From the IMG/VR virus record IMGVR_UViG_2904156775_000002, positions 1-64,000 of that record: a DNA stretch of 64,000 bases. One strand, written 5' to 3'. The stretch comes from a virus. Lineage: Duplodnaviria > Caudoviricetes. Of the stretch, positions 7,889 through 39,745 are shown one piece after another. Position 1 is the stretch's first letter; every line of letters starts with the position of its first letter. The translations under genes were made by a program, and so were the position numbers. Under the pieces are notes generated by a model. The model worked only from the letters and a program-made list of their open reading frames with translations, had not been told where the DNA came from and searched no databases.

Positions 7889-7927
7889 GAACATATGTTT
7901 GCTTAATCTAATAGATCATGCTATGAT
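7889..7927 (+). promoter_or_regulatory. LexA (Cheo) box overlapping a rightward sigmaA promoter
   Basis: GAACATATGTTT (7889-7900) overlaps -35 TTGCTT (7899-7904); 17-nt spacer; TGcTATGAT. Confidence 0.7.
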
Positions 7928-7969
7928 TGCCGTATACAAGACTCGTTTACTTTCATAGACCGTAAGGAG

Positions 7970-8209
7970 ATGATTTCAATGAATTCCAACTTTTATGTAG
8001 CTGGCCGGCTTATCGTTCCTATTTATCTTGAGGTACAAGAATCTTGTACAAAATATGCAATTCAAGCAGCTTCCAAAGCGCTTAGTACGAATACAATCTC
8101 CGTACTTCATGGCAATATCCACACCTGGAATGGCAAAGAATACCCGATTATCGCCAATAGAATTCATGTTGACTGGTATGAAACAGTTAAAAAAGAAGAG
8201 ATGATTTAG
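7970..8209 (+). CDS. Small hypothetical protein
   Basis: AAGGAG RBS; first ORF after the LexA-box promoter. Confidence 0.6.
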   Translation: MISMNSNFYVAGRLIVPIYLEVQESCTKYAIQAASKALSTNTISVLHGNIHTWNGKEYPIIANRIHVDWYETVKKEEMI

Positions 8210-8247
8210 CCGTACTGACATTTTTGTCTTTACTAAAAGGTCATACA

Positions 8248-8277
8248 TTGACTTTTATTTTTTCAAAATGATAGATT
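8248..8277 (+). promoter_or_regulatory. Second putative sigmaA promoter upstream of the RNA polymerase gene
   Basis: TTGACT-18 nt-TAGATT with a TG extension. Confidence 0.45.
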
Positions 8278-8338
8278 ATCAATGGAATTATAAAAACATA
8301 TTCTTCATTCTTAATAATGAAGCTAACTACATGAAGGA

Positions 8339-8575
8339 GTGAACCAATCACCATGCACAACTATTCTAAGGAGAAAAACGATGAAAACGTATATCAAAAC
8401 AGGACTATCCAAACTTAGCTATCAGGATCTCTATTACGACGGTTTTCTTGGATATGGGGAAAGTTTCGATGAAGACACATCAGAAATTATACCCATACAA
8501 GATTACTGGACTCTTGTCTATAATTCCGTACAGCAGCAGCGGGAATCCTATAACTACACTCATACTAATAAATGA
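8339..8575 (+). CDS. Small hypothetical protein preceding the RNA polymerase
   Basis: AAGGAG RBS before the internal ATG at 8381 (MKTYIKT), the likelier start. Confidence 0.6.
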   Translation: MNQSPCTTILRRKTMKTYIKTGLSKLSYQDLYYDGFLGYGESFDEDTSEIIPIQDYWTLVYNSVQQQRESYNYTHTNK

Positions 8576-8596
8576 CAGCAGACTGGAGCGAGCGTT

Positions 8597-11170
8597 TTGG
8601 ACCATTTCATACATTCCGTATACATACCTTCGATTGAAGGATCCGATATTTATAATCATATGGTTAGAGAGAAAGCAATCGATCTGAAATATATCGGGAT
8701 GCTTCCTCCCAGTCTCGAGCTTAATCAACTCATTAAATCAGGATTAAAATATTCCGTAAAAAAGGAAAATGGGAAATGTCTCTCTACAGATATCATCAAT
8801 GTCAAATTCAATCAAAAGGTCGCCTCTGGGAAAACAATATTAAAACATATTTCAAATAAACTGCTCGGAGAGCTGGACGAAGGATACAAAAACAAGCTGA
8901 ACGATTTTATGAGTACCATTGAAGCTGAAGCTTCTCTACCAAAGTGGGATGAAATCAGCAGCGAGCAATTGAGGATAAAGCTATATACCGATGGATTTGT
9001 TTTGAATGGCACCCACTATAAAGTATATAAGCGATCCAGCTCCAAATCCCGAGTAGGCCAATGTTTGTTTATCAAAGAAAAATTATACGATCGTATGATG
9101 AGATGGAGCCGTTTGGGATTAAATTTCGATGTTCAAAAACAAATCGATTATCCTTCTCTGCTCGCCTATGAAAGCCTGGTAGGTTCAGCTATTGAAAAAA
9201 CGATTAAAATCGATCCGAAAAACATTCTAATTGTCAATGATGTAGAGAGCAGATTTGTCCAACGGTCGAACGTAATCCGTACAAGCAAAAACGGCTTCCT
9301 TAATAGTTTTGAGGAGGATGCTTGGATCACCAACAGTCTTTTTGATGGCGAGTCGCTGTTAGACAGCTCCTATTTTGACGAGGGCAAAAGCATGCTGCTC
9401 CTTCGCAATCATATGTTCAAAAGCGCAGCATTCAACTGCAACATTCAATTATTTCTAAAGGAGCATTGCCCTCCTTATATCAACTATGAGGAATGGGAAA
9501 TCCCAAGCATGTTTGATGGAATAAAGCTGCTTGCAAAAGACGTTCATTTCATCATTACTCCCAGCAGTCTAAAAGCATTAAAGTTCAGCTCATTGATCGG
9601 TACTGAGCAATCCCTATGGGAGCATTGGAAAAAAGTCATTTATGCCGACGATTGCATCTTTGGGATATGCAAAAACGAAAAAAAATCCAAACAAGGGTAT
9701 GATGAATCCGGCCATATTCTGCAGCAAACCAGCTATCAAATGATTAACTCTCTCCCCATCTCCCAGACGGACATGAGCGACTTATGCCAATATGAAAAAG
9801 ACGTTATTACCCGTCTTAAAAACAATGATGATGATTTCATCTCCCATATCCGAAATAGCGCGAATGAGATGAATAGCCATTCTATGTTTGCAGATCTGTT
9901 TCTACATAACAAAGACCTGGCCAAAACCAAGCTATTCAGGAGATTTAGAAAAGATGTCATTCACAGCCATGTTAATCATATCAAAAATGGCAAGATTCGC
10001 TTACGAGGCGATTATTGTGTATTGCTAGGCAATCCTATTGAATTTTTGTTTCATAGTATCGGTCGATTGATTACGGATCAGCAGCAGCCTGAAAGCTTAT
10101 CCTTAAAGAATAACGAAGTACATACAAAGCTGTTCGATTATAAAGAACTAACCGCCTTCCGCAATCCGCATACAAGTCCCAGCAATGTTCTGATCGTGCA
10201 AAATACGCCTAATCTGGATATCGAAAAATATTTCAATTTAAGTCCGAATATCGTCTGTGTAAATGCGATTCAATTCCCGCTACAGGATATCTTGTCTGGC
10301 TGCGATTACGATTCCGATACCGTACTATTGATAGATAATGAGCGCTTATTGTCAATAAGCCAACGTGTATTCGGAAAATATCGGGTTTGTGTTAATCTTG
10401 TAGCCAGCAATAAGAAAAAATATCAGATTACAAGCTATGATATGGCTGTCATTGACAATGAATTGTCCAAGAGCCAACGTTATATTGGGCGAACCGTTAA
10501 TATTGGACAGCTATGCATGTCAACCTATTGGCATCTCTTGAATATTGGGGCTCCCAACGAACAACTAATCAGTCTACTGAAAAAAATCGATGTGGTGACC
10601 GTGTTATCCGGTATATGTATAGACTTGGCTAAAAAAATGTTCACTATTAATATTGGACAGGAAATTAGATATATAAGTGAAACTAGAGAATTAATCAAAG
10701 AAAAACCGCTGTTCTGGAAATATGTATCTCAGAATGATTCCATTCAGTCCGTTGCCTATCAATGTCCTATGGATTACTTGTATAACGAAATGACTGCTCT
10801 GAAAATGGCTGACTATCGTAAAAGTACAGAGCTCAGTTCCCTGCTGCTTCATCAGGAGCTAAGAAAAGCCGACAGAAAGCAGCTAGCCAAAATAGTTGAA
10901 TATATTGAAACGATGTGTATGAGTATTAATCAAGCTTTTGCGGCTTCTCTGCCTGCCGACGAACGAGATCGAATCATCGATGACTTCATTCGTTATTATC
11001 AATTCTATATCGGCAAATTGAAAATCAATCCAAACACCATGTATTCCTTACTAGAGAAAATAGCTCGCGATGAGCAAAGAGCAAAAATCGCAACCAAGCT
11101 TATGAATGTTCTATATCGTACCCATAAGGAAATGTTTATTGCCGCTTTTAAATCAAAAGTTCCACACTAA
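8597..11170 (+). CDS. yonO: YonO-like single-subunit DNA-dependent RNA polymerase (double-psi beta-barrel, RdRP-related)
   Basis: 857 aa. YKRSSSKSRVGQCLFI, LFDGESLLD, LLRNHMFK, FRNPH and catalytic LSGCDYDSD (DxDxD). Lies upstream of late genes as in SPbeta. Confidence 0.92.
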   Translation: MDHFIHSVYIPSIEGSDIYNHMVREKAIDLKYIGMLPPSLELNQLIKSGLKYSVKKENGKCLSTDIINVKFNQKVASGKTILKHISNKLLGELDEGYKNKLNDFMSTIEAEASLPKWDEISSEQLRIKLYTDGFVLNGTHYKVYKRSSSKSRVGQCLFIKEKLYDRMMRWSRLGLNFDVQKQIDYPSLLAYESLVGSAIEKTIKIDPKNILIVNDVESRFVQRSNVIRTSKNGFLNSFEEDAWITNSLFDGESLLDSSYFDEGKSMLLLRNHMFKSAAFNCNIQLFLKEHCPPYINYEEWEIPSMFDGIKLLAKDVHFIITPSSLKALKFSSLIGTEQSLWEHWKKVIYADDCIFGICKNEKKSKQGYDESGHILQQTSYQMINSLPISQTDMSDLCQYEKDVITRLKNNDDDFISHIRNSANEMNSHSMFADLFLHNKDLAKTKLFRRFRKDVIHSHVNHIKNGKIRLRGDYCVLLGNPIEFLFHSIGRLITDQQQPESLSLKNNEVHTKLFDYKELTAFRNPHTSPSNVLIVQNTPNLDIEKYFNLSPNIVCVNAIQFPLQDILSGCDYDSDTVLLIDNERLLSISQRVFGKYRVCVNLVASNKKKYQITSYDMAVIDNELSKSQRYIGRTVNIGQLCMSTYWHLLNIGAPNEQLISLLKKIDVVTVLSGICIDLAKKMFTINIGQEIRYISETRELIKEKPLFWKYVSQNDSIQSVAYQCPMDYLYNEMTALKMADYRKSTELSSLLLHQELRKADRKQLAKIVEYIETMCMSINQAFAASLPADERDRIIDDFIRYYQFYIGKLKINPNTMYSLLEKIARDEQRAKIATKLMNVLYRTHKEMFIAAFKSKVPH

Positions 11171-11186
11171 TAAGAGTTAAAAATAC

Positions 11187-11219
11187 GAAAAACCCTTTTA
11201 TACAATGGGTTTTTCTTTT
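11187..11219 (+). terminator. Hairpin/terminator after the RNA polymerase gene
   Basis: GAAAAACCC-11 nt-GGGTTTTTC followed by TTTT. Confidence 0.55.
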
Positions 11220-11290
11220 GTTAAAAGTGTCGCCATATGATAGGTGAATAAACCTAGCCCAAAGCTATTACGAAGGAAGGAGGTTCTCAG

Positions 11291-11383
11291 ATGAAAAAGA
11301 AAAAGCGCCTGCAAAGAGCTGAGCCGTTCCGAGCTATTAAAGAGGACATGGCACTGCTATCGATAAGTTGTTGGTATAGCTAG
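11291..11383 (+). CDS. 30-aa basic mini-ORF (possible remnant at the head-gene deletion junction)
   Basis: MKKKKRLQRAEPFRAIKEDMALLSISCWYS with a very strong AAGGAGG RBS. Confidence 0.4.
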   Translation: MKKKKRLQRAEPFRAIKEDMALLSISCWYS

Positions 11384-11448
11384 ACCAAGAATCTTCCGCA
11401 AGTGAAATGGAGTGCTTAAACGGTATATGAAAACGATGTTAATGATTT

Positions 11449-12177
11449 ATGATCCAATACAATAACCTTGTAAAGATATTCGAGGACAGCATAAGTCTGG
11501 ATCAAGTGGGGACTCTTACATTCCCAACTGTCGAAGACTTCGTGCAATTAGGGGAAGAACAATATAATACATACTTATATCCATATCGGCTCTCCTTGGA
11601 CATGTTCGATATCAATTCAGAGTATAAGGAAATGCTCTCCCTATTCGATTTATTTTTCACTCCTACCCTTACCGTAACCATTGGCTCTCGCAAGCTTACC
11701 TATCTAGAGCTGCTCACCGAGTCCCTGCAATTTTTCTTCAAGGAAGAAGTAAAGTGCTTAATGGAATCATCCAGTCTCAGAATTGGAAAATCAGGCAGCA
11801 TTGACCGCAACAACTTTGATGAAGTAGCTGCCGCCATACTTCAAGTCACGAATATGGAAAAGATTAAGATCGAACCGCTGCCTGAATTCAAATCGGATCG
11901 CCATAAAGATATCTATCTAAAAATTATGGAAGGCCGGTCTCGAAACTCAGCAAAAGATGAACTGAATATGGCTACAGTCATTAATACTGTCATCCATGGA
12001 GGCAAATCCTTTATCCCATACGAGACAGTCAAAAAGATGACCTTAAACCAATTGCTTAACAGCTACAAGGCTATTCTGGAAATTGATTCATTCTTTATTA
12101 ACTTTAATCAAGCCTTAGCGGGAGCAGATTCGAAAAAAATCGATCTCACTCATTGGGCCAACAAAATTAAAATATAA
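11449..12177 (+). CDS. SPbeta-like phage protein preceding the tail tube gene
   Basis: Position before the tube gene; C-terminal AGADSKKIDLTHW resembles SPbeta-like tail-region proteins. Confidence 0.6.
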   Translation: MIQYNNLVKIFEDSISLDQVGTLTFPTVEDFVQLGEEQYNTYLYPYRLSLDMFDINSEYKEMLSLFDLFFTPTLTVTIGSRKLTYLELLTESLQFFFKEEVKCLMESSSLRIGKSGSIDRNNFDEVAAAILQVTNMEKIKIEPLPEFKSDRHKDIYLKIMEGRSRNSAKDELNMATVINTVIHGGKSFIPYETVKKMTLNQLLNSYKAILEIDSFFINFNQALAGADSKKIDLTHWANKIKI

Positions 12178-12198
12178 CCTTAAAGGAGATTTAAACCT

Positions 12199-12951
12199 AT
12201 GAACTATGGAATTAAAGACGCCGCAAATCTAACGATCCGCAAGAAAGCTGATAAAAGCATTTTCCTCTATACTCCATACGCGAATGTAACAACAAATGAA
12301 TGGACTAGTGATCAAGTATATGCCAATGTGAAAGGCTCCCGTGCCATCCGTTGGGATAATAATAAACAAGGTAAGCTTACCGTCTCGTTGGAAGTATTTG
12401 ATCTCAAATGGCTTGCTATGCTGGCAGGCGCCGACTGGAGCAAAGGCAAGACGGATATGTTCGTTCGCAAAGAGCTAACTGCGGATGCCGCTAACAGCAT
12501 TACCCTGCCTTCGACACCGAAAGTCGGCTCCCTCTCTGTCTTCCAACTGCTGGACGATAAGGTATCGCATGGCGAGGAGCAGCTGGTCGGCGATCCAGCG
12601 CAAAATGAAAATGAATATACGCTGGCAGGCCAAAAGGTTACTTTGAACGCTGCAACAGCTCCTGAGAACGCTGTGTTTGTTGTTTACTACCAGGCGGAAA
12701 CAGAAGTAACAGCGAAAACACTGGAGTTCAAAGCGAACAAACATCCAGAGGCTTTCGAAATTATTGGCGATACCTTCATTCGTCCAAAAGACGGCGGCGA
12801 AGACGAGTTTGTACAAATGTTTTATCCGAATGCACGTCCAGTATCCAACTTCACGATTACGATGGATTCCGGCAATGTGACGAATTTGGAAATCGTATTC
12901 GATCTATTCCCTGATGCCGATCAAAATCTTGCCGTCTACACACTGCTCTAA
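12199..12951 (+). CDS. Major tail tube protein (SPbeta-like)
   Basis: YGIKDAAN start, beta-rich, SNFTITM...VFDLF end, strong RBS, followed by a terminator as expected for an abundant structural gene. Confidence 0.75.
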   Translation: MNYGIKDAANLTIRKKADKSIFLYTPYANVTTNEWTSDQVYANVKGSRAIRWDNNKQGKLTVSLEVFDLKWLAMLAGADWSKGKTDMFVRKELTADAANSITLPSTPKVGSLSVFQLLDDKVSHGEEQLVGDPAQNENEYTLAGQKVTLNAATAPENAVFVVYYQAETEVTAKTLEFKANKHPEAFEIIGDTFIRPKDGGEDEFVQMFYPNARPVSNFTITMDSGNVTNLEIVFDLFPDADQNLAVYTLL

Positions 12952-12980
12952 TCATACCTTCTTCGTTTAAGTTTAATCCT

Positions 12981-13021
12981 AAGAAGATGGCAGAGGATCC
13001 CCTCCCCTGCTATCTTCTTTA
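12981..13021 (+). terminator. Intrinsic terminator after the tail tube gene
   Basis: AAGAAGATGGCAG...CTGCTATCTTCTT. Confidence 0.7.
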
Positions 13022-13033
13022 TTATTTGAGGAG

Positions 13034-13582
13034 TTGAAATTCATGAAGCGAAAATCCAAAAAAATGACGGTTGATCATTTGATTCAAGAAGCCAAAACCT
13101 ATGATGTACTTAAAAAAGTAACGTTTGAAGATGGCTTATATGCGGAAGTTTATACAAATTTTTCGATTGTCCGAATGGATGATGCCCTGGAGGACTATAG
13201 CAAATTCATTGCAGAATACAGCCAGCATCACCCCATAAAAGAAAGAAAAATGATCGACTACATCAACCTTCATATTCTGTTATGGTTCACAACACTTGCT
13301 GATCCCGAGCCTTATTCATACGAAGAAAAGGTGCAGCTTTTCGAAATCATTCTAAAAAGCAAGTATGCGGAAACGATCTTCCTGGCCTTGGATCCCCAAG
13401 ACATTCAAAAAGTCTATCAGCGTATGTTCAAGAAGCTTGAGACGCTTCAGGAGTTGGCCCAATCCAATGCGGAAGTTCGCACCCAATTTCTTGAGAGCCT
13501 ACAAAGCTTGGATATAGAAAACAAAGATGAAATTATGAATTTGCTGTTAAAGCCGCATTCTGAACCCACAACATCTAAATAG
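13034..13582 (+). CDS. Probable tail assembly chaperone
   Basis: Helical protein between tube and tape measure genes (positional inference). Confidence 0.5.
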   Translation: MKFMKRKSKKMTVDHLIQEAKTYDVLKKVTFEDGLYAEVYTNFSIVRMDDALEDYSKFIAEYSQHHPIKERKMIDYINLHILLWFTTLADPEPYSYEEKVQLFEIILKSKYAETIFLALDPQDIQKVYQRMFKKLETLQELAQSNAEVRTQFLESLQSLDIENKDEIMNLLLKPHSEPTTSK

Positions 13583-13592
13583 GAGCTCGATT

Positions 13593-14045
13593 ATGAAGAA
13601 AATCAAGTTTTATATTCATGAATTAGAGTATGCTATTCTTTTTCTCTATGAACTCAAATTAATCGATTACCATTCCCGGATGAAAACCCGATTCATCAAG
13701 CTTCTGACTGAACGTTTCCAGCAATACAAGGACGAGTATTTTGAGCTGGTCAAGGAACATGCTCATTTGGATGAAGACGGAGAACCGCTCCTCATTGAAG
13801 ACAGCACCCAACCACGATATGACATCAAAGATATGGATAAATTTAAATTGGCCCTTATCCCCCTCCTTGAAGAAGAATTTATCATTGATGTCAACGAACA
13901 TAATGAAAACATGATGAAAAGCGTTACGAAGTCTATCCTTCATTGCGGCCTATCCTTCGGAGGGCAGGATCAGTTCCTATATGAATCGTTATGCAGCAAA
14001 TTTGAAGAGTTGTCGGAAGATGATGGCTCTAACTATACGAAATAA
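13593..14045 (+). CDS. Phage protein, DUF1617-like
   Basis: SRM.TRFIKLL...LVKEHA..DEDGEP pattern typical of Firmicute phage tail-region proteins. Confidence 0.5.
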   Translation: MKKIKFYIHELEYAILFLYELKLIDYHSRMKTRFIKLLTERFQQYKDEYFELVKEHAHLDEDGEPLLIEDSTQPRYDIKDMDKFKLALIPLLEEEFIIDVNEHNENMMKSVTKSILHCGLSFGGQDQFLYESLCSKFEELSEDDGSNYTK

Positions 14046-14129
14046 AAAATATTAGAATTCGGAGTGGAGAGGAATCGTTCATATTTGACTGCTCCACTTT
14101 TTTGAGTCACGAAAGAGGTGTAATCAAAT

Positions 14130-17100
14130 ATGTCAGAATCAGATCAAGTTAGGCTAAGTGCCGATTTAAATCGCGATGTATCCGTGCAAAATATTAATAA
14201 GAGCATTAAGGCTGTTGAAAGTAATCCCTTACTCAAACAATTTCGAGTGAAAATTGATGTCAACCAAGATGAACTGAATCAATTAATGAACTTTATGAAT
14301 CCTACAGCTAATCAAGCTGTTATAAAAGATGCGCCTGCAACGGAAACGAAGAAAAAAACGTTGAGTAGTATTAATAAGGGCATCCAGCACATTCCTGCCT
14401 GGTTTGAAACTGCACGTTTTCTGCTGGATCCATTAGTAGCTGGAATGAAAGCAGCCATTCAAACTATCGTTCAAGTCGACAATCAGATCATCGAGCTGAA
14501 GCGAAGCATGAATGAAGAAACAAACTTCGACAACCTGCTTCTCAAAAGCACCGAACTGGCAAAGGAGCTTGGCCGTTCGCTTACGGATGTTAATCAGGTG
14601 ATGATCGAGCTTGCTCAGCAGGGCTTTAACGAAGATCAAATGTTAAGCCTTGCGAACTCCGTAACCGTTGCCCAGAATGTCAGCAAGCTTGACTCCAAGG
14701 AAGCTATTGATACCATTGCGATCGCAATGTCGGCTTTCAATATTGAAGCTGATAAATCCATAGGAATTGTTGATAAGCTCGTTGCCATTAACTCCAGCTT
14801 TTCCGTAGCATCCAATGAACTTGCACAAGCACTGCAGCTTACATCTAGCACGGGAGACGCCTTTGGTGTAACTCTTGAAAACCTGCTTGGGGATGCGACA
14901 GCTATCATGCAAGTGACCAAGGAGTCCGGCAACGTCACAGGCGACGCTCTGAATACGATTTACTCCCGGCTGACCACAGTTGAGCCCGCTGTAGATACAC
15001 TTAAACAACTAGGTATTAACATTACCCAAGCCAATGGCTTGTTTAAATCTTCCACACAAATCTTGGATGAGGTAGCACGTAAATTCGGAACATTGAATGA
15101 TGAAGCAAAGTTAAATGCTTCTATCACGCTGGCAGGGCAAGACTATCATAGACAATTTCTCGCATTGATGGATAACCGCAATGTTGCACATGAAGCGGCA
15201 GCTAAAGCGATGTATTCTGAAGGCAGCGCTATGAATGAACAAGCCTCATATATGCAGTCCTACGAGGGACGAATTGTCCAAATGAAGGCCGCTTGGCAAG
15301 AATTTTCGCTTGCAATGGGCAATGCTATCTTAAGTGATTCATTAATTATGATAACTTCCGCGTTAACTGAAATGGCTAACATATTTAGCTCGGTTGTTAG
15401 ACATATAGGTTTCCTTCCTCCTGTTTTAGGTACAGTCGCAACCGCGCTCGCAGTATTGAGCCCAAATTTCAGAACAGCTACTATTGCAGTTATAACTTTT
15501 GGCAACGGCATAAAAGCATTAGGAGTCTCGGCAAAAAGTGCAACGGTGGCTCTCCGTTCATTAGGAGCTGCAACGGTAGTCGGCGCTGTATTTGTTGCAA
15601 TTGGCTTTGCTCTTGAGGGCCTTATGAAGCTATTCAGCAAGTCAAAGGAATCGCAAGAGGATTACTTTGATTCACTGAAGCAGAATATGAACGAGACGAG
15701 CCAAAAGATAGCCAGTTTAAAAGAATTGCAACGGCAATTGCATGACAGCAACAGCTCACAAGAGGAACTACAAAACACTTATAAGCAGCTTGGTTCCATC
15801 ATGCCTGAAGTGATTAGTCATTATGATAAACATGGCAATATCGTCTATAAGAGCAAAGAAGCGATTGACGAATTAATCAAATCTCAAAGAGAACTTTATG
15901 CGCTTCAACAGAAAAATGCAGCTTTTAAAATGAAGGACTCTGTCCCTGGCATAACTGAAGAGATGGAGAAAAGCAACAAAAATAAAAATAAGTTATCCAA
16001 ACAAGCCAATGAGCAGTTGGCCCGAGAGGAATCTTATACGTTTCTCAAAAAGTTTGGCGATGAAACGAATGTATTCGATTTTACTTCCAATTACCAAGAA
16101 GATTTAAAAACGTTAAAAGAAGAATTAAAAAACATTTATAGCAAACACGGATTAGAAGGCTCCATTTTATCTGGCACACTAAGCGAAAATTTTGATTTAA
16201 GAAACTTGTATGGAGCAATTGATGAGGACACTTTTAAAAGTATTCAATCTAGACTCTCAAAAATCAATGGCGAAATCGCTGTAGAAACAGAAAACATTAA
16301 GAAAAGCACCCATGAGTATAATTACATTCTTAAAACTATTGGCCAAGCAGAAACTATTGATGGCGACCAAAATTTATCTCTATTTTTCAACCAATTGGCT
16401 GATGCCTTTACGAAGCATGAATCCTTTGCTACGAAAACTGAAGAAGAGCTCAATGCTTTTGCCAATAGCTATCAATCCACAATAAGCAACGTTGCTGCCT
16501 ACATTAAAGATAATAAAATAGACATTTCGCAAATGCTACAAACCGGGAATATGGATGAACTTGTAAATGCCTTCCCACAACTATCTGAACATTTCGGTCT
16601 GCTCTCAACATCCATACAACAATCTGCCAATACCAGTAAAACTTTATTTCCTGTCTATGACGAACTTAAGAGACATATTGGTAATGTAAGCAGCAAATCA
16701 GATGCCGCAGCCAAAGGAATTAGGATTCTCGATGCTCAGATGGACTCTGCCACAGGTGCAGTCAAGTATGTAGGGAAAGTGGTTGATTCCAAGGAAGCAA
16801 TGGAGGATCATAACCGAAAGCTTCAGGAAACCGTAAATTCGATTTCTAAACTGGAATCTGCTTACAATACGTTACAAAGCGGACAAGAACTCTCACTAAG
16901 CTCTACATTAAGTCTTCTTGAAGAATTCCCTGAACTTCTGTCATACGTCGACCAACATACGGGTGCATTAAAATTAGAAGGAAATGTAATAGAGGAAATT
17001 GCAAACCAACGCAGAAAAGCACGACTTGAGGAAATTAAAGATCGCCTTGAAGATCTTAAAAGTACCCATAGTGAATTGGAAACCAAGCGTGACATGTATT

Positions 17101-19382: not shown

Positions 19383-19402
19383 TAAATATATGAAATACAA
19401 AT

Positions 19403-20023: not shown

Positions 20024-20047
20024 CTTAGAAAGGCAGGTAAATAATCG

Positions 20048-20683: not shown

Positions 20684-20691
20684 GTGGTCTT

Positions 20692-21330: not shown

Positions 21331-21350
21331 ATTAGAAAGGAGGTGATAAC

Positions 21351-26999: not shown

Positions 27000-27009
27000 T
27001 TAGAGAGGG

Positions 27010-27747: not shown

Positions 27748-27782
27748 ACTAATAAAGGAAAATAGTATCTAACAAAAACATT

Positions 27783-27820
27783 AAGGGTGAGGGGTGAAAT
27801 ATATCTCTCACCCTTTTTTT
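27783..27820 (+). terminator. Intrinsic terminator
   Basis: AAGGGTGAG...CTCACCCTT followed by a T-run. Confidence 0.7.
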
Positions 27821-27860
27821 CTTTATATAAAAATATATCCAATACAATGGAGATGAAAAT

Positions 27861-28478: not shown

Positions 28479-28490
28479 GGAAGTGATTTT

Positions 28491-29069: not shown

Positions 29070-29086
29070 TTTGAGGTGATGCTAAT

Positions 29087-29767: not shown

Positions 29768-29785
29768 GAAAGGAGTGATTAGTAT

Positions 29786-31609: not shown

Positions 31610-31630
31610 GGCTACTGCTCTACTTCTTTT
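31603..31630 (+). terminator. Intrinsic terminator
   Basis: GAAGTAGGGC-TACT-GCTCTACTTC followed by a T-run. Confidence 0.6.
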
Positions 31631-31660
31631 CTTTTTTATGACAATAAGATTGGATGTGGG

Positions 31661-32803
31661 ATGATGGCAACATTAGGTTCTTCTTTAACTGCTCCTGAGA
31701 GTGGATGGCAAAGATTTGATGATGATGATGGTAATATTGTATACGACAGCACTTGGGTAAGCTGGTCTGGTGCAAATTTTTATAAAGCAATGTCCTATTA
31801 TACTAGAAATGCAAATGGAATGGTTACAATACCCTTTTATGGAAGTGGATTTCGCTTAATATCTGCAACAAATCATGATTGTGCTTCAAATGTTAGGATT
31901 GAAATTGATGGTGTAGCTGAAACAATTAGCACAGCGTCCACTCTTGTATACCAAGCCTTGGTTTATGAGAAAACAGGGCTTTCAATTGGAAATCATACAG
32001 CAATTATAACAAATGTCAGTGGCGGTGTTCTCTATATAGACGCGATTGATGTAGATGTGAATGGTGGTTTAGGAATCGGATTTGACCATAATATACTATT
32101 TTTTTCTGAACCTAACACAGCATTTTCAATTGAATCAAATCCTAATCAGACAGTTAATGCAATACCAAAAATGACTAGCAACACAGTTCCAAGTGGCGTG
32201 GTAAGCGCAAGCACTACTAGGGTTGGATGGGAGCCATACATGTCATTTGACAGGATAGACACAGATGGAAATGGCTGGACTACGAACGAAGGTGTTAAAA
32301 CAGGTTGGTTAGCATATGAATTCCCCGAATCCATATGTATTGACACATATACAATTACCGCACATTATAGCGCATCCTGGGTGAATCTAGCACCAAGAGA
32401 TTGGACTTTTGAAGGTTCTTTGGATGGAATTAATTGGAAAGTACTGGAAACAAGAGTGAATGAGATAGCGTGGGGTCCAAAAGAGAAAAGAACATTCTCT
32501 GTTAGAAACACAAGAAAGTTCAAGAAATATCGAATCAATATAACTGCTATAAATGGTGGAAATTACTTAAACATAAATGAAGTGGAAATGTTTAAAGGTG
32601 GAGCAACACTGATTTCTATCAGGGATAGTGTAGTAGAAAGTGATTTTTTAAACTATGGTTTAAACCTTCAAACACAGAAAACGGATGTAATGTTTATAGA
32701 TATTTTACAGAAAAAGAGAAATAGCACAACGTTAGGTTCTGGAAAAACATTCACACATACTGTTGACTTAAATAAATTTAGAATCAATTCAATCAAACTG
32801 TAA
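31661..32803 (+). CDS. Adhesin with F5/8 type C (discoidin) domain
   Basis: GWQRFDD domain plus WLAYEF...APRDWTFEGSLDGINW. Confidence 0.75.
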   Translation: MMATLGSSLTAPESGWQRFDDDDGNIVYDSTWVSWSGANFYKAMSYYTRNANGMVTIPFYGSGFRLISATNHDCASNVRIEIDGVAETISTASTLVYQALVYEKTGLSIGNHTAIITNVSGGVLYIDAIDVDVNGGLGIGFDHNILFFSEPNTAFSIESNPNQTVNAIPKMTSNTVPSGVVSASTTRVGWEPYMSFDRIDTDGNGWTTNEGVKTGWLAYEFPESICIDTYTITAHYSASWVNLAPRDWTFEGSLDGINWKVLETRVNEIAWGPKEKRTFSVRNTRKFKKYRINITAINGGNYLNINEVEMFKGGATLISIRDSVVESDFLNYGLNLQTQKTDVMFIDILQKKRNSTTLGSGKTFTHTVDLNKFRINSIKL

Positions 32804-32841
32804 ATGGAAGAGACATTTTATTGAGATAGGGGAGTGAGAGT

Positions 32842-33954
32842 GTGGCTACAATAGGACAACCATTAACCTCACCAGAAACAGGATGGAAGAGGTATGACAA
32901 TACTAACGCTAATTTTAAGTATATAGGAACTTGGACGCACGATACAGGGTCATTTTACAATTCAACAAGAAGTTGGACTAGCTCTAATGATAGTAAGTTA
33001 GTTTTGAAGTTCCGAGGAACAAGTATAAGGATTTTATCCTATATGAACCAAGACAGAGGGGATGCTTCTATAACGATAGATGGTGTAGGATATACTTACT
33101 CAGGTTATAGTTTAGCGGCAGGCACAGGAGGGACGTATCAAGGACTAGTGTACGAAAATACAAGCCTTTCTGAAAGCGAACATACAGTTGTAATTCAAAA
33201 GAAGAGTGGTTCTTTTTTGGATATTGATGCTTTTGATTTCAGTGAAAGCAGCGAACTCCTAGCCCCTCCGAGAGTAATAGGTGAGCAATTAACTGCGCCA
33301 GAAGCAGGATGGAAAAGGTATGACAATAAGGACTCTAACATTAAATTCACTGGAACTTGGAATAGTTATGCCAATGTTGGTTACAGTAGCGGCGAGTTGA
33401 CAGGAGCAAATGTAGTGGGAAATAAGATTGAGTTTTCGTTTAAAGGAACTATGATTCGTATAATAGATGAGGGATTTACCAATAGGTCATCTGTGATCTC
33501 TATTACTATAGATGGCGTAACTGAAACCTATAGTGCCTATCGGTCTTCATCACAAAACCAAACACTTGTATATGAGAAGACAGGTCTATCGAATAAATTC
33601 CATACTGTAACTATTGAACTAAAGGAAGCGAGTAAATGGATAGGCTTAGATGCTATAGATATAGATGCTACAGGAGAACTGAGAGAACCATACAATAAAT
33701 TCTTGATTTCTTCTAATAGTAGTATATACTCCCTAAGTGAAGAGAATGGGAAGAATGTTCTGATCAATGTCTCTAGCGCATCCGAAAATAACTTTATTAA
33801 ACATGGATTCATTGCAACGAGTATTAATTTTATTGGTTTTTTTAAAGATAAAAGTTTTGTTTCTCAAACGAATATCGAAATAGGTGCAGGACGAGTTTTT
33901 AAACAATCTATAAACACTGAACCTATACCCATAAAAAATATGAGTATAGAATGA
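32842..33954 (+). CDS. Adhesin with tandem GWKRYDN jelly-roll domains
   Basis: Internal duplication IGQPLTSPETGWKRYDN / IGEQLTAPEAGWKRYDN. Confidence 0.7.
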   Translation: MATIGQPLTSPETGWKRYDNTNANFKYIGTWTHDTGSFYNSTRSWTSSNDSKLVLKFRGTSIRILSYMNQDRGDASITIDGVGYTYSGYSLAAGTGGTYQGLVYENTSLSESEHTVVIQKKSGSFLDIDAFDFSESSELLAPPRVIGEQLTAPEAGWKRYDNKDSNIKFTGTWNSYANVGYSSGELTGANVVGNKIEFSFKGTMIRIIDEGFTNRSSVISITIDGVTETYSAYRSSSQNQTLVYEKTGLSNKFHTVTIELKEASKWIGLDAIDIDATGELREPYNKFLISSNSSIYSLSEENGKNVLINVSSASENNFIKHGFIATSINFIGFFKDKSFVSQTNIEIGAGRVFKQSINTEPIPIKNMSIE

Positions 33955-33988
33955 TCGTTTCATTTAGATAAGAAAAGGAGTTGGGGGA

Positions 33989-36112
33989 ATGGCTAACTGG
34001 AATCCCAATAAAAAAGGTGCTAATGTTACACTTTCCAATGGCAACATAACAGCAACTATATCTGGAAGAGAGGGGGTGTTTGCAACTAGTGGAAAGACAA
34101 CTGGAAAATATTACTTTGAAGTTATTCATGATAGTGGCCCCCGAATTCTATCGATCGGAATCGCTAACGAGATAGCGCCAACAAATGCTACTTGGGTTTT
34201 TCAACAGTCGGGAGTATATTATGGAAATGAAGGTCGACTTTATGGGTTCACTGGCAGTTCTACTAGTGGCACTCCATATGGAAGTACATTTACAGTAGGA
34301 GATGTAATTGGAGTTGCCTTTGATGTTGACGCGAAAACTATCGAGTACTTCAAAAATGGAGTTTCACAGGGTCAAATTACTCATTTATTAACAGGTTCGC
34401 AGTTTTATGCATTTATAAGCAGAGGTAGTACTAGTGGAACTATAACTGCTACAGGTAGATTTTCTATTAATTCTTTTCAGTATCCTATCCCTGCGGGATT
34501 CAGTCCATATGATGAATATCGGGTACTTGTTTACAATAATGGTTGGAAGAAGTGGAACTCAAACCTTTTAAGTTGGGTAACTGTTACAATTTCCAACCCC
34601 ACTGAAACTGACTTTAATTCTGGAATGTCTGATTATGAGTTGTCTTTGATTCCAGAGACAGCTTGGAGTCAATTGATTGGCGAAATTGAAATTAATGCAT
34701 TCACATCAAATCAGGATAAAACAGAGGTATTATTTAATGTTGAAACTGAACCATTTACATTGTCACAAGAATGGGATGGAAAGCAGATTCAAATTATCGA
34801 ATTTACTGATGATGCTAACAAAACAGAATCGAGTATTTTGTTAGAGACAGAGCCATTTATGCTTGAAGACTACCTGTCAGGCATTGATAAGTTAGATGTA
34901 TTATATTACACCGATGATACTGAGGTAAGTTCTCCAACTTTGGAGATTGAAGCTAACTATAGTCCTTTAGATGAACTTGGCGATTTCGACATTGTAACGT
35001 GGGTGGAAGATGACAAGGTTAAACCAACAGTTGGAATCAACGCGTTACCTATAGGACAAGTTTTATTTAATGAAAATACTATTGAGAGATATATTGACAT
35101 TGAATCTTTTGTCGCAACTATCGAATCTTCTAATGCAGATGCCAGTTTGATTAGATTCTTCCTATCATTTGATGGAGGATTGTCGTGGAAATCATTTAGG
35201 AACAACTATTGGAAGGAGGGGAAAGATGCTGACTTGACCAATAAATCATTAGTTAGAAGATATGGCATGAGTGCAAATGACTTGATGAGCATTCCTGAGT
35301 CCGAAATTAATCGTATGGTTGATGGCGAATTCAGGATTGGCTACTACATCGAAGAAAGAGCATGGACTGATGAAAATGAGAAGATTACAGAGGTAAGTTA
35401 CAAAGGTACTGCCTATGTTGATGATGTGAAATTCTCAGACTTAGCCTTCTATATCTTAAACACAAAAGCAACAATCAATATTATATTCGCCGGAAATAAA
35501 GTGCAAGGTGTTCTTGATGACGAAGATAAAGGTAAAGTTCAATATCGAATCCTTCTTAATGGCGACCCCTATTTCCCTGTGAATGGTGAGTTCACTAGGC
35601 TTCTACCTTCCCCATTCCAACTGAATGTTGTAGTTGATGATAAGCGAATCAAATTTGGGGAGCAAAATTCCATAATCGTAGAATTTAAAGACTATTGGGG
35701 AGAAGTTGATTCATGGAGTTCGACCTTTATAGGTACACACTCAGGATTGGTGTTTACAGATGAAATGGGCAACTTCTTTACCACAGCTTTTGGTGAAGTG
35801 TTGAAATATCTTGATTTTGGTGAAATTATTGCTGGACAGACAACATTAGACCAAAAGGTTATCTTAAAAAATAATATTGGTTATCCAGTAAAAAATGTTC
35901 AACTGACAGCAAGTTATGCTGATAGTGATGTAGCAATTGAAATGTCAAAAGAGCACTCTCCGTTTGAATCACATTCCGAATTGCTATATCCAGACGTTTT
36001 GGATATAAACGAAGAGATTCCTTTTTACGTAAGGATTAGCACCAAACTGACTGCATCACCAAATGCTAATGGAGAGTTTGAAATAAGATTGAATGCAGAC
36101 AGGGTGATTTAG
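33989..36112 (+). CDS. SPRY-domain tail-associated protein with acidic C-terminal region
   Basis: WNPNKKG....LSNGN, GKYYFEV, YGSTFTVGDVIGVAFD......YFKNGVSQG. Confidence 0.8.
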   Translation: MANWNPNKKGANVTLSNGNITATISGREGVFATSGKTTGKYYFEVIHDSGPRILSIGIANEIAPTNATWVFQQSGVYYGNEGRLYGFTGSSTSGTPYGSTFTVGDVIGVAFDVDAKTIEYFKNGVSQGQITHLLTGSQFYAFISRGSTSGTITATGRFSINSFQYPIPAGFSPYDEYRVLVYNNGWKKWNSNLLSWVTVTISNPTETDFNSGMSDYELSLIPETAWSQLIGEIEINAFTSNQDKTEVLFNVETEPFTLSQEWDGKQIQIIEFTDDANKTESSILLETEPFMLEDYLSGIDKLDVLYYTDDTEVSSPTLEIEANYSPLDELGDFDIVTWVEDDKVKPTVGINALPIGQVLFNENTIERYIDIESFVATIESSNADASLIRFFLSFDGGLSWKSFRNNYWKEGKDADLTNKSLVRRYGMSANDLMSIPESEINRMVDGEFRIGYYIEERAWTDENEKITEVSYKGTAYVDDVKFSDLAFYILNTKATINIIFAGNKVQGVLDDEDKGKVQYRILLNGDPYFPVNGEFTRLLPSPFQLNVVVDDKRIKFGEQNSIIVEFKDYWGEVDSWSSTFIGTHSGLVFTDEMGNFFTTAFGEVLKYLDFGEIIAGQTTLDQKVILKNNIGYPVKNVQLTASYADSDVAIEMSKEHSPFESHSELLYPDVLDINEEIPFYVRISTKLTASPNANGEFEIRLNADRVI

Positions 36113-36144
36113 TCTCAATACAATGAGATTGGAAGTGGACAACC

Positions 36145-37860
36145 ATGGACGATGAATATGAGTACGACTTAGAAGCTATTTTTGCGGTCAGGACACTCTC
36201 AAATAAAATTGAGGGTGTTTTTAAGCTATATGCGGTTGATGATTCAGATATAGAAACGTCATTCGTTGTTGCAACAAGAGACAACAGTGATTTGGACATG
36301 GAGTTATCTGTAAAGGTACGCAGAGAAGCAGATTTGAATAGCACCTTCGATGTAAAGTACAGAGATAGCGACGATATTGAAGCTACATTTGAAGTTGTTG
36401 GCTCTTCTTATTTGGAGTCCACGTTGGAAATCAGACCCAATAACAGAATGTTCGGCAGATTTGAACTGCTGCCAGCACCAAGAGTAAATCAATTGATTTC
36501 GAGCGTTGAAGATTCAACAACTCGTAGCAGAGAAGACTTGAGAACACTGAACTATGGCGATTCTCAAAAAATGATGATTGGCAGAATTTTTGATGCTGAC
36601 CTTGGAGAAGACTATCTCGAATCCTTTGTTAAATTCGGAGATGTTTCCAAAAACCTAATGGACTTGGCTATACTTGAAGAAGCGAGTCTGAGGTTATATT
36701 ACACAGGCGACTTTTATGACACTGTTAATATAGAGCTTTGTTTGCCAAATCAAAATTGGCAGGAGCGTGGCATTACACATGCGAATAAACCACTTCCAAG
36801 TGAGCTAATAACAGACAAATTTACAATCAACAAAGATAAGCGTTATATTGAATTTGACATTAAAGAGACTTTCATGCATTGGTTCAATGGGGATATTAAA
36901 AACTTTGGTTTCCTGATAAGGTCGAACAACGGTTATTCTACTAGCTTCTATACAAGAGAAAGTAGTCGTCCTCCTGTATTAAACATTAATTATATATCAG
37001 ATCAAGTCTACAGTGCAGGCAGAAGTGAAATTGAATCTACAATGTTCATTATTGGTAAAGGTTACTCTGACATAAACGCAACGTTTGAAGTTCATAGTGA
37101 TTATGGATTTGATGAGCGTGAGGCAACGTTGTATGTTCACAGAGCAGAGGTTCCATTGGAAGAAGATTTGGATTCCTTGATTGCGATTAGCAAACCAGAC
37201 CAAAACGTAACGTTTAGGATAGCACTTCGAGACGAAGATGATAAAGATATAACCATTGCAGTTATTGCAAAGAAGAATGAAGAGTTTAAGTCTTATATTA
37301 GCGTAAGCAGACCAGAAATTGATGGTATGATTGCGGTTGACCCTAACATTTCAATGCCTATCACCATTGAAGTTAAAGGCGAAGAAAAAGAGGATTTTGT
37401 TTCATTCCTTACTGTCACAAGAGGGAAGATTGAGCTTGGATTCAAAGTTAGGGCGATTGACCATGGTGATTTGAGTTCGACAATTGAAGTTCCTAACTAC
37501 GATTATCTTGACTCTGTAATTACTGTATCGAATCCAGACTTAGAAATGACTTTTGACATCCATACGATTGACCTAAAAGACGTAACATTTGTAGTCAAAG
37601 AGAAAGAATATCTTGATGCTACATTCTTGGTTTACCAGCATAGCAATTTGGATATGTCCTTTGATATTAAATACGCTAACGAGATTGATGCAACGTTCGT
37701 GGTTAGCAAACCAGAACTGTCAGGCTACTTCTATCCTAGGGCAATCGGTGAAGATGAACTTGAATTGACATATCAAATTAGACAATTGGATGCAAGTGAC
37801 TTAGATATATTCCTTACAGTTAAAGGAGAAGACAGCGGAGCGTACTACTTCATACTGTAA
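36145..37860 (+). CDS. DNRLRE/CBM96-like domain protein with acidic beta repeats
   Basis: LNYG, ASLRLY, W.E.GIT..NKP, FYTRES..PP.L.I.Y flanked by many DL.STF.V-type repeats. Confidence 0.7.
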   Translation: MDDEYEYDLEAIFAVRTLSNKIEGVFKLYAVDDSDIETSFVVATRDNSDLDMELSVKVRREADLNSTFDVKYRDSDDIEATFEVVGSSYLESTLEIRPNNRMFGRFELLPAPRVNQLISSVEDSTTRSREDLRTLNYGDSQKMMIGRIFDADLGEDYLESFVKFGDVSKNLMDLAILEEASLRLYYTGDFYDTVNIELCLPNQNWQERGITHANKPLPSELITDKFTINKDKRYIEFDIKETFMHWFNGDIKNFGFLIRSNNGYSTSFYTRESSRPPVLNINYISDQVYSAGRSEIESTMFIIGKGYSDINATFEVHSDYGFDEREATLYVHRAEVPLEEDLDSLIAISKPDQNVTFRIALRDEDDKDITIAVIAKKNEEFKSYISVSRPEIDGMIAVDPNISMPITIEVKGEEKEDFVSFLTVTRGKIELGFKVRAIDHGDLSSTIEVPNYDYLDSVITVSNPDLEMTFDIHTIDLKDVTFVVKEKEYLDATFLVYQHSNLDMSFDIKYANEIDATFVVSKPELSGYFYPRAIGEDELELTYQIRQLDASDLDIFLTVKGEDSGAYYFIL

Positions 37861-37948
37861 TCTATAACTTCAGGAGCTTCTGAATTTTATTGAGAGTCAA
37901 GATAGGTGTTTACAGCAATATCCTGCAATTTATAAGAAATGCGGGATA

Positions 37949-38329
37949 TTGCTTATTTATATTGAAAAAATTAAAGGAGCGGATATTATGTCATTCTACA
38001 CCGATACATATCTGAGGATTTGGGGAAATAAAGATGTGAAAACTGCCACCGTTACTTCGGCCAATAATGGCATTGTAATAAACCTTGAAGATTCAACATC
38101 TTATACAATCGCACTTCCATCTAAACCCTACAAGTGGGACGATGTGCGACGAAAATCCGAATTAGTGGATGAGATTAATGCTCGGCTAAGATTATCTAAT
38201 GCCAAAGTAGAATGTTACATTGGCGGAGTCTCTAAGGATACGAAATACGATTGCTTAGTTTTCAGGGCAACAGGTAACTATAAAGTTTCAAGTGTTGCCG
38301 GTACATTTACCGATGAGTTTTTCAAGTAA
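37949..38329 (+). CDS. Hypothetical protein
   Basis: AAGGAG RBS before ATG 37988 (MSFYTD). Confidence 0.6.
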   Translation: MLIYIEKIKGADIMSFYTDTYLRIWGNKDVKTATVTSANNGIVINLEDSTSYTIALPSKPYKWDDVRRKSELVDEINARLRLSNAKVECYIGGVSKDTKYDCLVFRATGNYKVSSVAGTFTDEFFK

Positions 38330-38361
38330 TTCTATCAAAATCAAGCGTTGTATGAAAATGT

Positions 38362-38391
38362 AAGAGTGTCTATAGAGGCACTCTTTTTTTT
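38362..38391 (+). terminator. Intrinsic terminator before the lysis cassette
   Basis: AAGAGTGTCT/AGGCACTCTT hairpin followed by a T-run. Confidence 0.65.
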
Positions 38392-38395
38392 CTAA

Positions 38396-38863
38396 ATGCT
38401 AGGAGGAGAAAATTTGCAACTAGGAGCCTATATAAACTTTTGGACAACTAAAGAGATCACATTTTACGGCGTTGTGGGAGGGATTGGAACTTATATGTTT
38501 GGAACATTTACAGGCATTTTAGAAGTTCTATTTCTTGCCATGGCATTTGACTGGATTACAGGGGTGACCGCTTCAGTCATTGAAAAGAAAACACTAACAG
38601 CGATTAATAGTAAAAAGAATTTCATTGGTGGAGTGAAGAAATTCTTTATGATCATGATCGTCTTTCTTTCTCATCGTATAGATTTGGCTTTCGATCTAAA
38701 TTGGGTAATGACAGGTGTAATTTATTTTTGGTTAATTAATGAGTTTATCTCTATCTCTGAAAACTTTTCAAGAATGGAAATTCCATTTCCTGCACAATTA
38801 AAGAAGTTTATCGCTATCTTAAAAGATAGATCATCTTACGACGAAAAGAAAAGCAATGAATAA
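38396..38863 (+). CDS. Phage holin (phi29/Cph1, Phage_holin_4-type)
   Basis: DWITG, S.K...G..KK, NE..SI.EN...M.IP.P..L. Likely TTG start at 38414. Confidence 0.9.
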   Translation: MLGGENLQLGAYINFWTTKEITFYGVVGGIGTYMFGTFTGILEVLFLAMAFDWITGVTASVIEKKTLTAINSKKNFIGGVKKFFMIMIVFLSHRIDLAFDLNWVMTGVIYFWLINEFISISENFSRMEIPFPAQLKKFIAILKDRSSYDEKKSNE

Positions 38864-38905
38864 AAGAGAGAAAACAAATTAGTAAATTGAAATGAAGGTG
38901 AACCA

Positions 38906-39745
38906 ATGGCTTTTTTGATGAAGTACGAAGTTAAGCAAAAACTTTTAACAAAAAAAACAAAAAGACGATCTGGTATCTGTATGCCTTCTGTTAAATTCAT
39001 AGTGTCGCATGATACTGGTAATGATGGAAGTACGGCCTTAGGGAACGTGACATACTATGAAAGGTCTAATAATGAAAAAGAAGCATCCGCACATACCTTT
39101 ATTGATGATAAAGATATTATTGAATGCATCCCACTTACAACTGGACAACCAGAAAAAGCGTGGCATGTTTTGTATAATATAACTGAAGATAACAGGCTAT
39201 TTGGCGGAAATGCAAATGATATTGCTGCCGGTGTTGAGCTTTGTTATTCATATACAAAAGGCTCAATAAATAATAAAGAATCGTATAAGAGATATGTTTG
39301 GTATCATGCATATTTATGTTTTAAATATAATATCGATCCTAAAAAGAATATATGCGGTCACAATGAATTGGATCCATCACGTAAAACTGATCCATTTAAA
39401 AATGCATTAAAGATAATGAATATCAGTAAAGCTCAATTTATTGAGGATGTAATAAATGAGTATGATGAATGTACAATTAAGGAGAGTCAACCGATGACAA
39501 TAGAAGAGAAAACAGCTTTCAATAATCTAAAAGATATTGTTGAGAAACAAACAAAAATCATTACTACACTACATTCAACCATTAAATCCCTTCAAGAAAG
39601 AGATAAAATGCCGCAGATCCCTGAGTTCGCTAAGGAAGCAGTTGAAACAGCGGTTAAAGCTGGCTTGGTGGATACACCTGAAGGTGGCTCATATGATTTT
39701 TATCGATTAATTACTGTTCTGCATCGCAATAAATTGATATTTTAG
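38906..39745 (+). CDS. Endolysin, N-acetylmuramoyl-L-alanine amidase (Amidase_2)
   Basis: HDTGN, SAH.FIDD, E.AWH, ELC, GH..LDP.RK.DP. Confidence 0.92.
   Translation: MAFLMKYEVKQKLLTKKTKRRSGICMPSVKFIVSHDTGNDGSTALGNVTYYERSNNEKEASAHTFIDDKDIIECIPLTTGQPEKAWHVLYNITEDNRLFGGNANDIAAGVELCYSYTKGSINNKESYKRYVWYHAYLCFKYNIDPKKNICGHNELDPSRKTDPFKNALKIMNISKAQFIEDVINEYDECTIKESQPMTIEEKTAFNNLKDIVEKQTKIITTLHSTIKSLQERDKMPQIPEFAKEAVETAVKAGLVDTPEGGSYDFYRLITVLHRNKLIF

Follow-up and report, generated by a model that had tools for sequence, protein, structure and literature searches.

Why would a bacterial chromosome keep a phage-type RNA polymerase directly ahead of a phage tail operon, with the genes for a phage head missing? 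The question is raised by a locus in a 64,000-nucleotide (nt) stretch filed as a virus (IMG/VR record IMGVR_UViG_2904156775_000002, positions 1 to 64,000; hereafter the window, to which all positions refer). The window corresponds to G000:C11:105559-169558, part of a Paenibacillus genome of 5.76 Mb with a G+C (GC) content of ~51%. A first-pass annotation had described positions 7889-39745 as a headless tail-particle locus derived from the Bacillus phage SPbeta and equipped with its own single-subunit polymerase. That the locus is headless and has been maintained by selection we hold with high confidence. Our favored explanation is that the locus descends, as a streamlined chromosomal element, from a distant temperate phage of the SPbeta type and makes an F-type (non-contractile) tail-particle bacteriocin (tailocin); we give this reading, including the whole chain up to bactericidal tail particles driven by the element's own polymerase, a probability of roughly 0.6. 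The probable product of the locus is a tail-shaped bacteriocin of a hitherto undescribed kind.

The locus occupies a low-GC island (element 1, ~724..40672; GC 0.33-0.45 compared with ~0.51 for the genome). Its bounds were placed where blastn synteny with the host flanks of Paenibacillus paeoniae ends and restarts, and host DNA lies on both sides, the left border being at ~724. The right two thirds of the island form a single plus-strand gene train running from the polymerase to an amidase, and the gaps between genes in 8597-39745 are all <300 bp. PHROGs and Pfam scans of all 24 large plus-strand open reading frames (ORFs) of this interval gave no match to any terminase, portal, capsid, replication or integrase family, in agreement with the first-pass annotation, nor to a sheath family. 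Two of the matched families, phrog_2729 and phrog_20658, are filed under 'head and packaging', yet here they are the tail tube protein and a 211-amino acid (aa) ORF inserted in the Dit gene. Neither a large serine integrase nor an early/replication region was found in the island, whose left arm contains regulators only.

An intact single ORF of 857 aa (8597..11170, plus strand) encodes the RNA polymerase, a YonO-type single-subunit two-barrel enzyme. The product matches phrog_8308 (5e-187), its Pfam RdRP score lies barely above the cut-off (24.0 bits versus 23.8), and tblastn aligned it with residues 133-555 of SPbeta YonO at 21% identity (E 4e-9). In an alignment of five sequences its DYDSD triad falls in register with DNDGD of YonO, for which a catalytic role of the Asp triad is reported (PMC5467207), and the intact polymerase first recognized by its DYDSD motif is borne out. 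Homologues number 584 at E <= 1e-10. Megablast of 8000-30000 against a phage collection gave no match, and tblastn of the polymerase against the same collection returned 11 distant records only; SPbeta was not among them and was compared directly instead. A search of 300 other genomes of the family yielded four closer homologues of 56-59% identity. The next gene starts at 11449, 278 bp downstream of the polymerase gene, in line with the ~280 bp noted earlier between polymerase and tail operon.

Two of the relatives found in this way, the full-length prophages of G292 and G289 (Paenibacillaceae), show what the locus lacks. Their polymerases are 55-59% identical to that of the locus, and the order polymerase, phrog_4051 gene, tube, tape measure, Dit, Tal, holin, amidase is the same. 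What sets them apart from the locus is a head and packaging block of ~17 kb that separates the polymerase from the tube gene, several additional kb that separate the tube gene from the tape measure gene, and, upstream, an extended early region of low GC. In G292 the ~17-kb block encodes HU-like, PhoH and exonuclease proteins, a terminase (weak phrog_9), a portal (phrog_2739, 8e-96), and phrog_3313 and phrog_4088 proteins. The block of the relatives matches SPbeta YonN, YonJ, YonG, YonF (terminase), YonE (portal) and YonD in the order of the SPbeta record; the record and the homology together confirm that head and packaging genes lie between yonO and the tail genes in SPbeta, as the first-pass annotation had stated. 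The locus itself has counterparts of SPbeta YomI, YomH, YomG, YomF, the amidase and YonO at 21-33% identity and, as in the SPbeta late operon, its two-barrel polymerase lies upstream of the structural and lysis genes on the same strand. Missing are everything between the polymerase and the phrog_4051 gene, the extra genes between tube and tape measure, and the early region; by comparison with SPbeta, the locus lacks the yonN-yomW block (HU, terminase, portal, head, connectors), the yomJ-yomT block, the replication genes and the SprA integrase. By gene content and order, the locus is an SPbeta-like late operon minus the polymerase-to-phrog_4051 block. A complete SPbeta-like prophage was rejected as an identification, since the head and packaging module, the large serine integrase and the early genes were looked for and not found; a MrpR-family repressor, also expected of such a prophage, is present.

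Matching head genes were next sought elsewhere in the genome, with G292 and G289 as positive controls. SPbeta yonB-yonJ and the head proteins of G292 and G289 gave no tblastn match in the genome (E 1e-3) beyond the HU, PhoH and protease of the host. The SPbeta-type portal family phrog_2739 and phrog_4088 matched two of five genomes, the controls, and not the window's genome, P. paeoniae (G312) or the headless relative G154 described below. Pfam terminase, portal and capsid searches of the window's genome found only a separate siphovirus-type prophage (G000:C20 ~375000-413000), which holds the sole terminase, portal and HK97 capsid set. Its ORF sizes point to a protease, a tape-measure-sized gene (868 aa) and other tail genes of its own, and tblastn identified an amidase. 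In P. paeoniae (genome 94% complete) PF03354, PF03237 and phrog_9 were all without a match; the PF03354 and PF03237 negatives, in either genome, count little, because both profiles missed the SPbeta-type terminase of the control G292.

Is the headless form a decaying remnant of one strain? The P. paeoniae genome (handled as both G301 and G312; locus L041) has the same headless layout, gene order and polymerase-tail junction between the same host genes. The shared order comprises the helix-turn-helix (HTH) regulator, the repressor pair, polymerase, spacer, phrog_4051 gene, tube, tape measure, three-part Dit and Tal. Nucleotide identity is 79-88% in the left flank, 80-90% in the right flank and 77-83% in the element core. 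The aligned P. paeoniae genes have no stops and lengths within a few residues, and twenty core genes are full length in that species. Codons were compared for 32 tblastn pairs, of which seven were skipped (identity <45% or coverage <80%) and two were mis-extracted (9 and 13 codons). Among the 23 usable pairs, the Nei-Gojobori (NG86) ratio of nonsynonymous to synonymous substitutions (dN/dS) ranged from 0.022 (tube) to 0.25 in 19, and dS was saturated in the other four, including the polymerase (78.8% identical, length within 2 residues, dN 0.127). When substitutions were placed at random at about the observed divergence, none of 1000 copies stayed free of stops for the polymerase, the tape measure or Tal. 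Since the spacer is homologous in both species, the loss of the head genes predates the split of the two copies, and therefore all measured constraint acted on the headless form. In a third assembly (run X8, isolate-like depth) a 21.9-kb contig covers 7800-14295 with 438 differences (~93% identity) and shows no joint at the junction. We conclude that this is not neutral decay, because a full-length copy with low dN/dS sits at the orthologous site in P. paeoniae and a third assembly carries the junction; the idea of a locus confined to one strain and drifting neutrally was thus contradicted. In a protein collection, matches of 92% to the polymerase and 98% to the 242-aa product of the phrog_4051 gene come from one contig of 85,826 bases. 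Runs X1 and X12 gave short pieces, none bridging the junction, and the RNA run X11 was partly without cover; nothing was concluded from these.

A related-locus scan of genome contigs returned a single locus. A rearranged headless relative was seen in another genome of the genus (G154:C6 ~141900-162889, loci L039 and L040), where the contig ends inside the element. On one strand it has a polymerase gene (intact, 864 aa), HU, chaperone, tape measure, Dit and Tal genes; upstream and inverted are the tube gene, a phrog_4051-like gene, a 169-aa gene and a 930-aa second polymerase-like gene, with MrpR-like and DndB-like genes adjoining. On the tailocin reading, this variant would suggest that domestication happened more than once. 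In G132 (C1 ~2144000-2184000, loci L031-L033) a 56%-identical polymerase homologue starts a 40-kb low-GC island; the ORF sizes there look like those of a different, complete type of prophage, and the SPbeta-like head and tail proteins used as queries show no similarity to it.

The junction between polymerase and tail genes contains two conserved features. A hairpin followed by a T run (11187..11215, plus strand; -19.6 kcal/mol, z -2.9, 0 of 200 shuffles as good), which we read as terminating the polymerase transcript, has been conserved in P. paeoniae. Immediately beyond it lies a 20-nt block, AAAGTGTCGCCATATGATAG (11224..11243, plus strand), with the motif CCATATGATA, identical in P. paeoniae amid an otherwise diverged spacer. 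The block has a single copy in the genome, and a search allowing up to 4 mismatches located it in the window and P. paeoniae alone. A related C-CATATG-R-W-A motif occurs 63-80 nt 3' of the polymerase stop in G292, G154 and G132, so that five of the six related loci have the motif after the polymerase gene. The 20-nt block is thus a candidate promoter of the private polymerase, and position, terminator and conserved motif are what supports the proposed DNA-dependent transcription of the late operon by this enzyme. In SPbeta, YonO is reported to transcribe a single operon of 37 late genes, and the promoter at its start was undefined (PMC5467207). A contig from a silage RNA library, ~97% identical, covers 11275-12581 into the tube gene, and others lie on further tail genes. 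These are a weak hint of expression only, since a contig does not reveal where transcription starts and DNA may be present in the library.

Upstream of the polymerase, the operon appears to be gated. A LexA-type box, GAACATATGTTT, overlaps a candidate promoter of the polymerase operon, TTGCTT-17-TGcTATGAT (7889..7929, plus strand), which was read by eye and is below the promoter-scan threshold. The box, the -35 and the -10 are identical in P. paeoniae, while the spacer between them differs. The box fits the LexA sites of this organism, because the region upstream of the host's own lexA carries three like boxes (GAACAAATGTTC, GAACTTATGTTT and GAACTGCGGTTC). Two small conserved ORFs of no Pfam family (7970-8209 and 8339-8575, plus strand) precede the polymerase gene, with a promoter-like site, TTGACT-18-TAGATT, between them. 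Diverging from this operon are the genes for a DndB-family protein (460 aa, 6447..7829, minus strand; Pfam DndB 8e-14; dN/dS 0.037) and an MrpR (YopR)-like protein (337 aa, 5465..6478, minus strand; Pfam MrpR_N_CB 1.5e-24 and MrpR_C_cat 1.3e-13), the latter 86.6% identical in P. paeoniae with dN/dS 0.030; the two are described as the most constrained genes. The DndB-family gene has what we take to be the position of the YopQ-like partner of MrpR. The MrpR-like protein is a candidate master repressor, MrpR (YopR) being reported as the master repressor of SPbeta (PMC10516654). In SPbeta, unlike here, the repressor genes do not directly adjoin the polymerase operon.

Further to the left, the island has an Xre-type HTH regulator (124 aa, 784..1158, plus strand; Pfam HTH_3 8e-10; 68.5% identical in P. 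paeoniae, dN/dS 0.25) and a four-gene Agr-like cassette (1439..3120, minus strand). The cassette encodes a 206-aa membrane protein (2500-3120), AgrB (1967-2476; Pfam AgrB 1.4e-13), a 43-aa peptide (1843-1974) with a ribosome-binding site, a cysteine core and an acidic tail, which on these features we presume to be AgrD-like, and a LytTR-only DNA-binding protein (1439-1834; Pfam LytTR 2.6e-10). It is kept in P. paeoniae with dN/dS 0.06-0.14 and, by loose analogy to the arbitrium of SPbeta phages, may be a cell-density input.

Do the genes downstream suffice for a tail particle? The siphovirus-type set expected of an F-type tailocin (tube, tape measure, Dit and Tal/hub) is present; all features from here to the amidase are on the plus strand. 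The first gene (11449..12177) encodes the 242-aa phrog_4051 protein (dN/dS 0.086), at the position of SPbeta YomV; its homologues are assigned to PF27211. The corresponding gene directly precedes the tube gene in G292 too, and the equivalent G289 gene matches YomV weakly. The tube (major tail) protein (250 aa, 12199..12951; phrog_2729 1.5e-63) resembles the solved tail tube proteins 8k98/9jgh (E 1.4e-9) and is 94.8% identical in P. paeoniae. It is followed by two genes at the position of tail chaperones (182 and 150 aa, 13034..14045; phrog_7383 and phrog_1401, families of unknown function; dN/dS 0.14 and 0.04) and by a YomI-like tape measure (1750 aa, 14130..19382; phrog_4211 6e-203, Pfam PhageMin_Tail; 33% identity to YomI). 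Dit (19403..21330) consists of an N part (19403-20023; Pfam DUF6558 and Sipho_tail) and a C part (20692-21330; DUF6558_C), with the 211-aa phrog_20658 ORF inserted at 20048-20683. This three-ORF form is kept in P. paeoniae (dN/dS 0.08-0.14); in G292 Dit is one 259-aa ORF. The YomG-like Tal or baseplate hub (1307 aa, 21351..25274; Pfam YOMG_N and Prophage_tail, phrog_6211 5e-259) is 88% identical in P. paeoniae.

Beyond the hub the pattern of conservation changes. A 167-aa protein and a 389-aa YomF-like protein (25310..26999; YomF 30% identity, E 2e-26 by tblastn; phrog_11315) are only 53-55% identical in P. paeoniae. The nine fibre or adhesin genes that follow (27010..37860; PHROG tail-protein matches) encode lectin-type and carbohydrate-binding domains, with Pfam matches to F5/8 type C (under its cut-off), CE2_N, SPRY and CBM96. 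Compared with P. paeoniae, where fibre genes are fewer, they show 28-39% local identity or have no counterpart. A stretch such as 25310-37860, 28-55% identical or replaced, has the pattern expected of a targeting module. The train closes with a holin (38396-38863; Pfam Phage_holin_4_1 6.6e-29, PHROG holin) and an N-acetylmuramoyl-L-alanine amidase (38906-39745; Pfam Amidase_2 2.8e-19, PHROG endolysin); in P. paeoniae a holin-like membrane ORF occurs along with an amidase. Thus tail genes, adhesins, holin and amidase were all found as described in the first-pass annotation, but its word 'complete' for the tail operon is only partly supported, a tail terminator not having been recognized.

The right end of the island carries a stand-alone recombinase zinc-ribbon protein (125 aa, 39968..40345, minus strand; Pfam Zn_ribbon_recom), without a match in the corresponding region of P. 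paeoniae. In the full G292 prophage, the same end carries a 133-aa counterpart that likewise stands alone (70258-70659 in the 80-kb stretch), and the idea that the 125-aa ORF is a broken integrase was rejected on that ground.

Outside element 1, the window contains a second phage-derived cluster (element 2, 46074-62250, minus strand), absent from the syntenic P. paeoniae site. It encodes a small sigma70_r4/HTH protein, an SPP1-type portal (438 aa), a scaffold-like protein, a tail terminator, a tube protein, a tape measure (1171 aa) and Dit and Tal-like proteins. A large terminase and a capsid gene are not present in element 2, and there is no room for either; LexA-type boxes were located at 60832 and 61740. 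The DNA separating the two elements and that next to them (40799-45239 and 62391-63959) encodes two SLH-domain proteins and an 886-aa RCC1-repeat protein. These are host genes outside both elements, with 79-90% aa identity to P. paeoniae. A histidine phosphatase gene at the left edge (1-724) has no counterpart at the syntenic P. paeoniae site.

How might such a locus work? We propose that the head, packaging, replication and integration genes were lost before this species and P. paeoniae diverged, and that selection has maintained the remainder from then on. At rest, the polymerase operon would be held off by LexA and the MrpR-like repressor, and the Agr-like system may contribute. DNA damage would remove LexA, whereupon the host polymerase would transcribe the two small genes and the YonO-type polymerase gene and stop at the hairpin. 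The private polymerase would then start at the CCATATGATA block ~60 nt further on and transcribe the ~28-kb tube-to-amidase operon as a single late unit. The producer would lyse and release the tails, their target range set by the fast-changing fibre array. Particle assembly, killing, the DNA damage (SOS) switch and the use of the promoter by the private polymerase are the steps that we infer from the gene content and its conservation.

Several observations weigh against this scheme. The motif is absent from the yonO-yonK region of SPbeta (no CATATG in that spacer) and not clear in G289. A site that weakly resembles a sigma-70 promoter, TTAAAA-18-TACAAT, also lies in the polymerase-tail junction, which leaves room for transcription by the host or for read-through. 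Dit is split over three ORFs. The sole candidate for the tail terminator is the 242-aa gene, whose models have no clear match: for the full-length model (pLDDT 80.3), Foldseek returned nothing from the PDB at E <= 0.001 and VIA-wide gave a best Z of 4.6 confined to the C-terminal helices, and the N-terminal 140 residues folded alone (pLDDT 70.6) reached a best Z of 3.2, which is not proof that a terminator is absent. The element is more diverged than its flanks, and exchange by recombination, in place of strict vertical descent, is therefore possible; with NG86 dS saturated for several genes, the ratios are rough. Finally, the lineage is rare, being found in two of 74 species genomes of the genus with the rearranged variant in a third; among 400 further genomes sampled from the class, none carried it at E 1e-80.

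Some of these points are shared by an alternative that we consider unlikely, namely that the locus is a cryptic prophage remnant kept for another benefit, such as SOS-induced altruistic lysis releasing DNA, enzymes or matrix, or superinfection exclusion by the repressor, with the tails riding along or under weaker selection. In its favor, dN/dS is lowest in the repressor module (0.030 and 0.037), few species carry the locus, and no tail terminator was recognized. A lysis cassette is present in both species but made of different genes, the amidases being 32% identical and the holin without a match. However, the tail genes are full length and strongly constrained (tube 0.022, Tal 0.075, tape measure 0.17), and the fibre end has diversified rather than decayed, a pattern hard to explain for useless tails. 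Considerably less probable is a role as tail donor, in which the tails would be supplied in trans to a head-only or tail-defective phage or satellite and become part of an infectious virion. The 242-aa gene kept before the tube gene could be a head-joining part, and the adjoining element 2 has a portal and a scaffold-like gene with no capsid gene. Yet P. paeoniae has element 1 without element 2, no searched terminase or portal family matched in that genome at its 94% completeness, and the sole complete head set in the window's genome belongs to the C20 prophage, which by ORF sizes has its own tail genes.

The least probable alternative, to which we give very little credence, is that the locus is still part of a whole phage whose head genes lie elsewhere or have diverged too far to be detected. 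The failure of PF03354 and PF03237 on the G292 terminase and the state of the assembly (26 contigs) leave some room for it. Against this, the searches that did detect the control head genes (tblastn, phrog_2739 and phrog_4088) returned nothing from G000, G312 or G154, and the island, without replication or integrase genes, has host DNA on both sides in a genome that is 99.65% complete.

Among known systems, monocin and efagin are closest by described layout: as their papers describe them, they likewise combine chromosomal regulators, a siphovirus-type tail and a holin-lysin pair without heads, and share with the locus tube, chaperones, tape measure, Dit, hub and receptor-binding proteins. The locus differs in being led by a YonO-type RNA polymerase, of which neither description makes mention, in its SPbeta-like ancestry (that of monocin is TP901-1-like), and in its size of ~40 kb with a long adhesin array; monocin is described with a defined tail terminator, FtbF, and none was recognized in the locus. 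From SPbeta the locus retains the YomI/H/G/F-like tail and the MrpR-family repressor. The PBSX-type defective prophages of Bacillus resemble our proposal in being SOS-inducible, chromosomally fixed particles with a transcription factor of their own; unlike the locus, they are contractile, have heads that package host DNA, and use a sigma-like factor with the host polymerase. To our knowledge, the known tailocins are transcribed by the host polymerase with an activator or a sigma-like factor. In the literature we found no system in print that joins YonO to a tailocin, nor any tail-like particle with a single-subunit polymerase. Whether the locus stands for a distinct class of F-type tailocins, derived from SPbeta-like phages and set apart by orthogonal transcription (a ~100-kDa polymerase, LexA and MrpR-type gating, a CCATATG-R-W-A promoter and a 28-kb operon), is a tentative proposal that we rate at somewhat under even odds.

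If the reading is correct, private transcription of a tailocin by a single-subunit polymerase would represent a regulatory design new to such weapons, and YonO-type polymerases would gain a second, non-viral role. The YonO authors raised a non-viral role as a possibility for chromosomal homologues (PMC5467207). The 20-nt block would then be the first sequence-level candidate for a YonO-family promoter, a point that the YonO report of 2017 left open (PMC5467207), and the compact layout of switch, polymerase, terminator, candidate promoter and operon makes YonO-type recognition directly testable. The conserved tail core with its swapped fibres would in turn be a natural map of the parts that set target range, which may be useful for narrow-spectrum agents against Paenibacillus.

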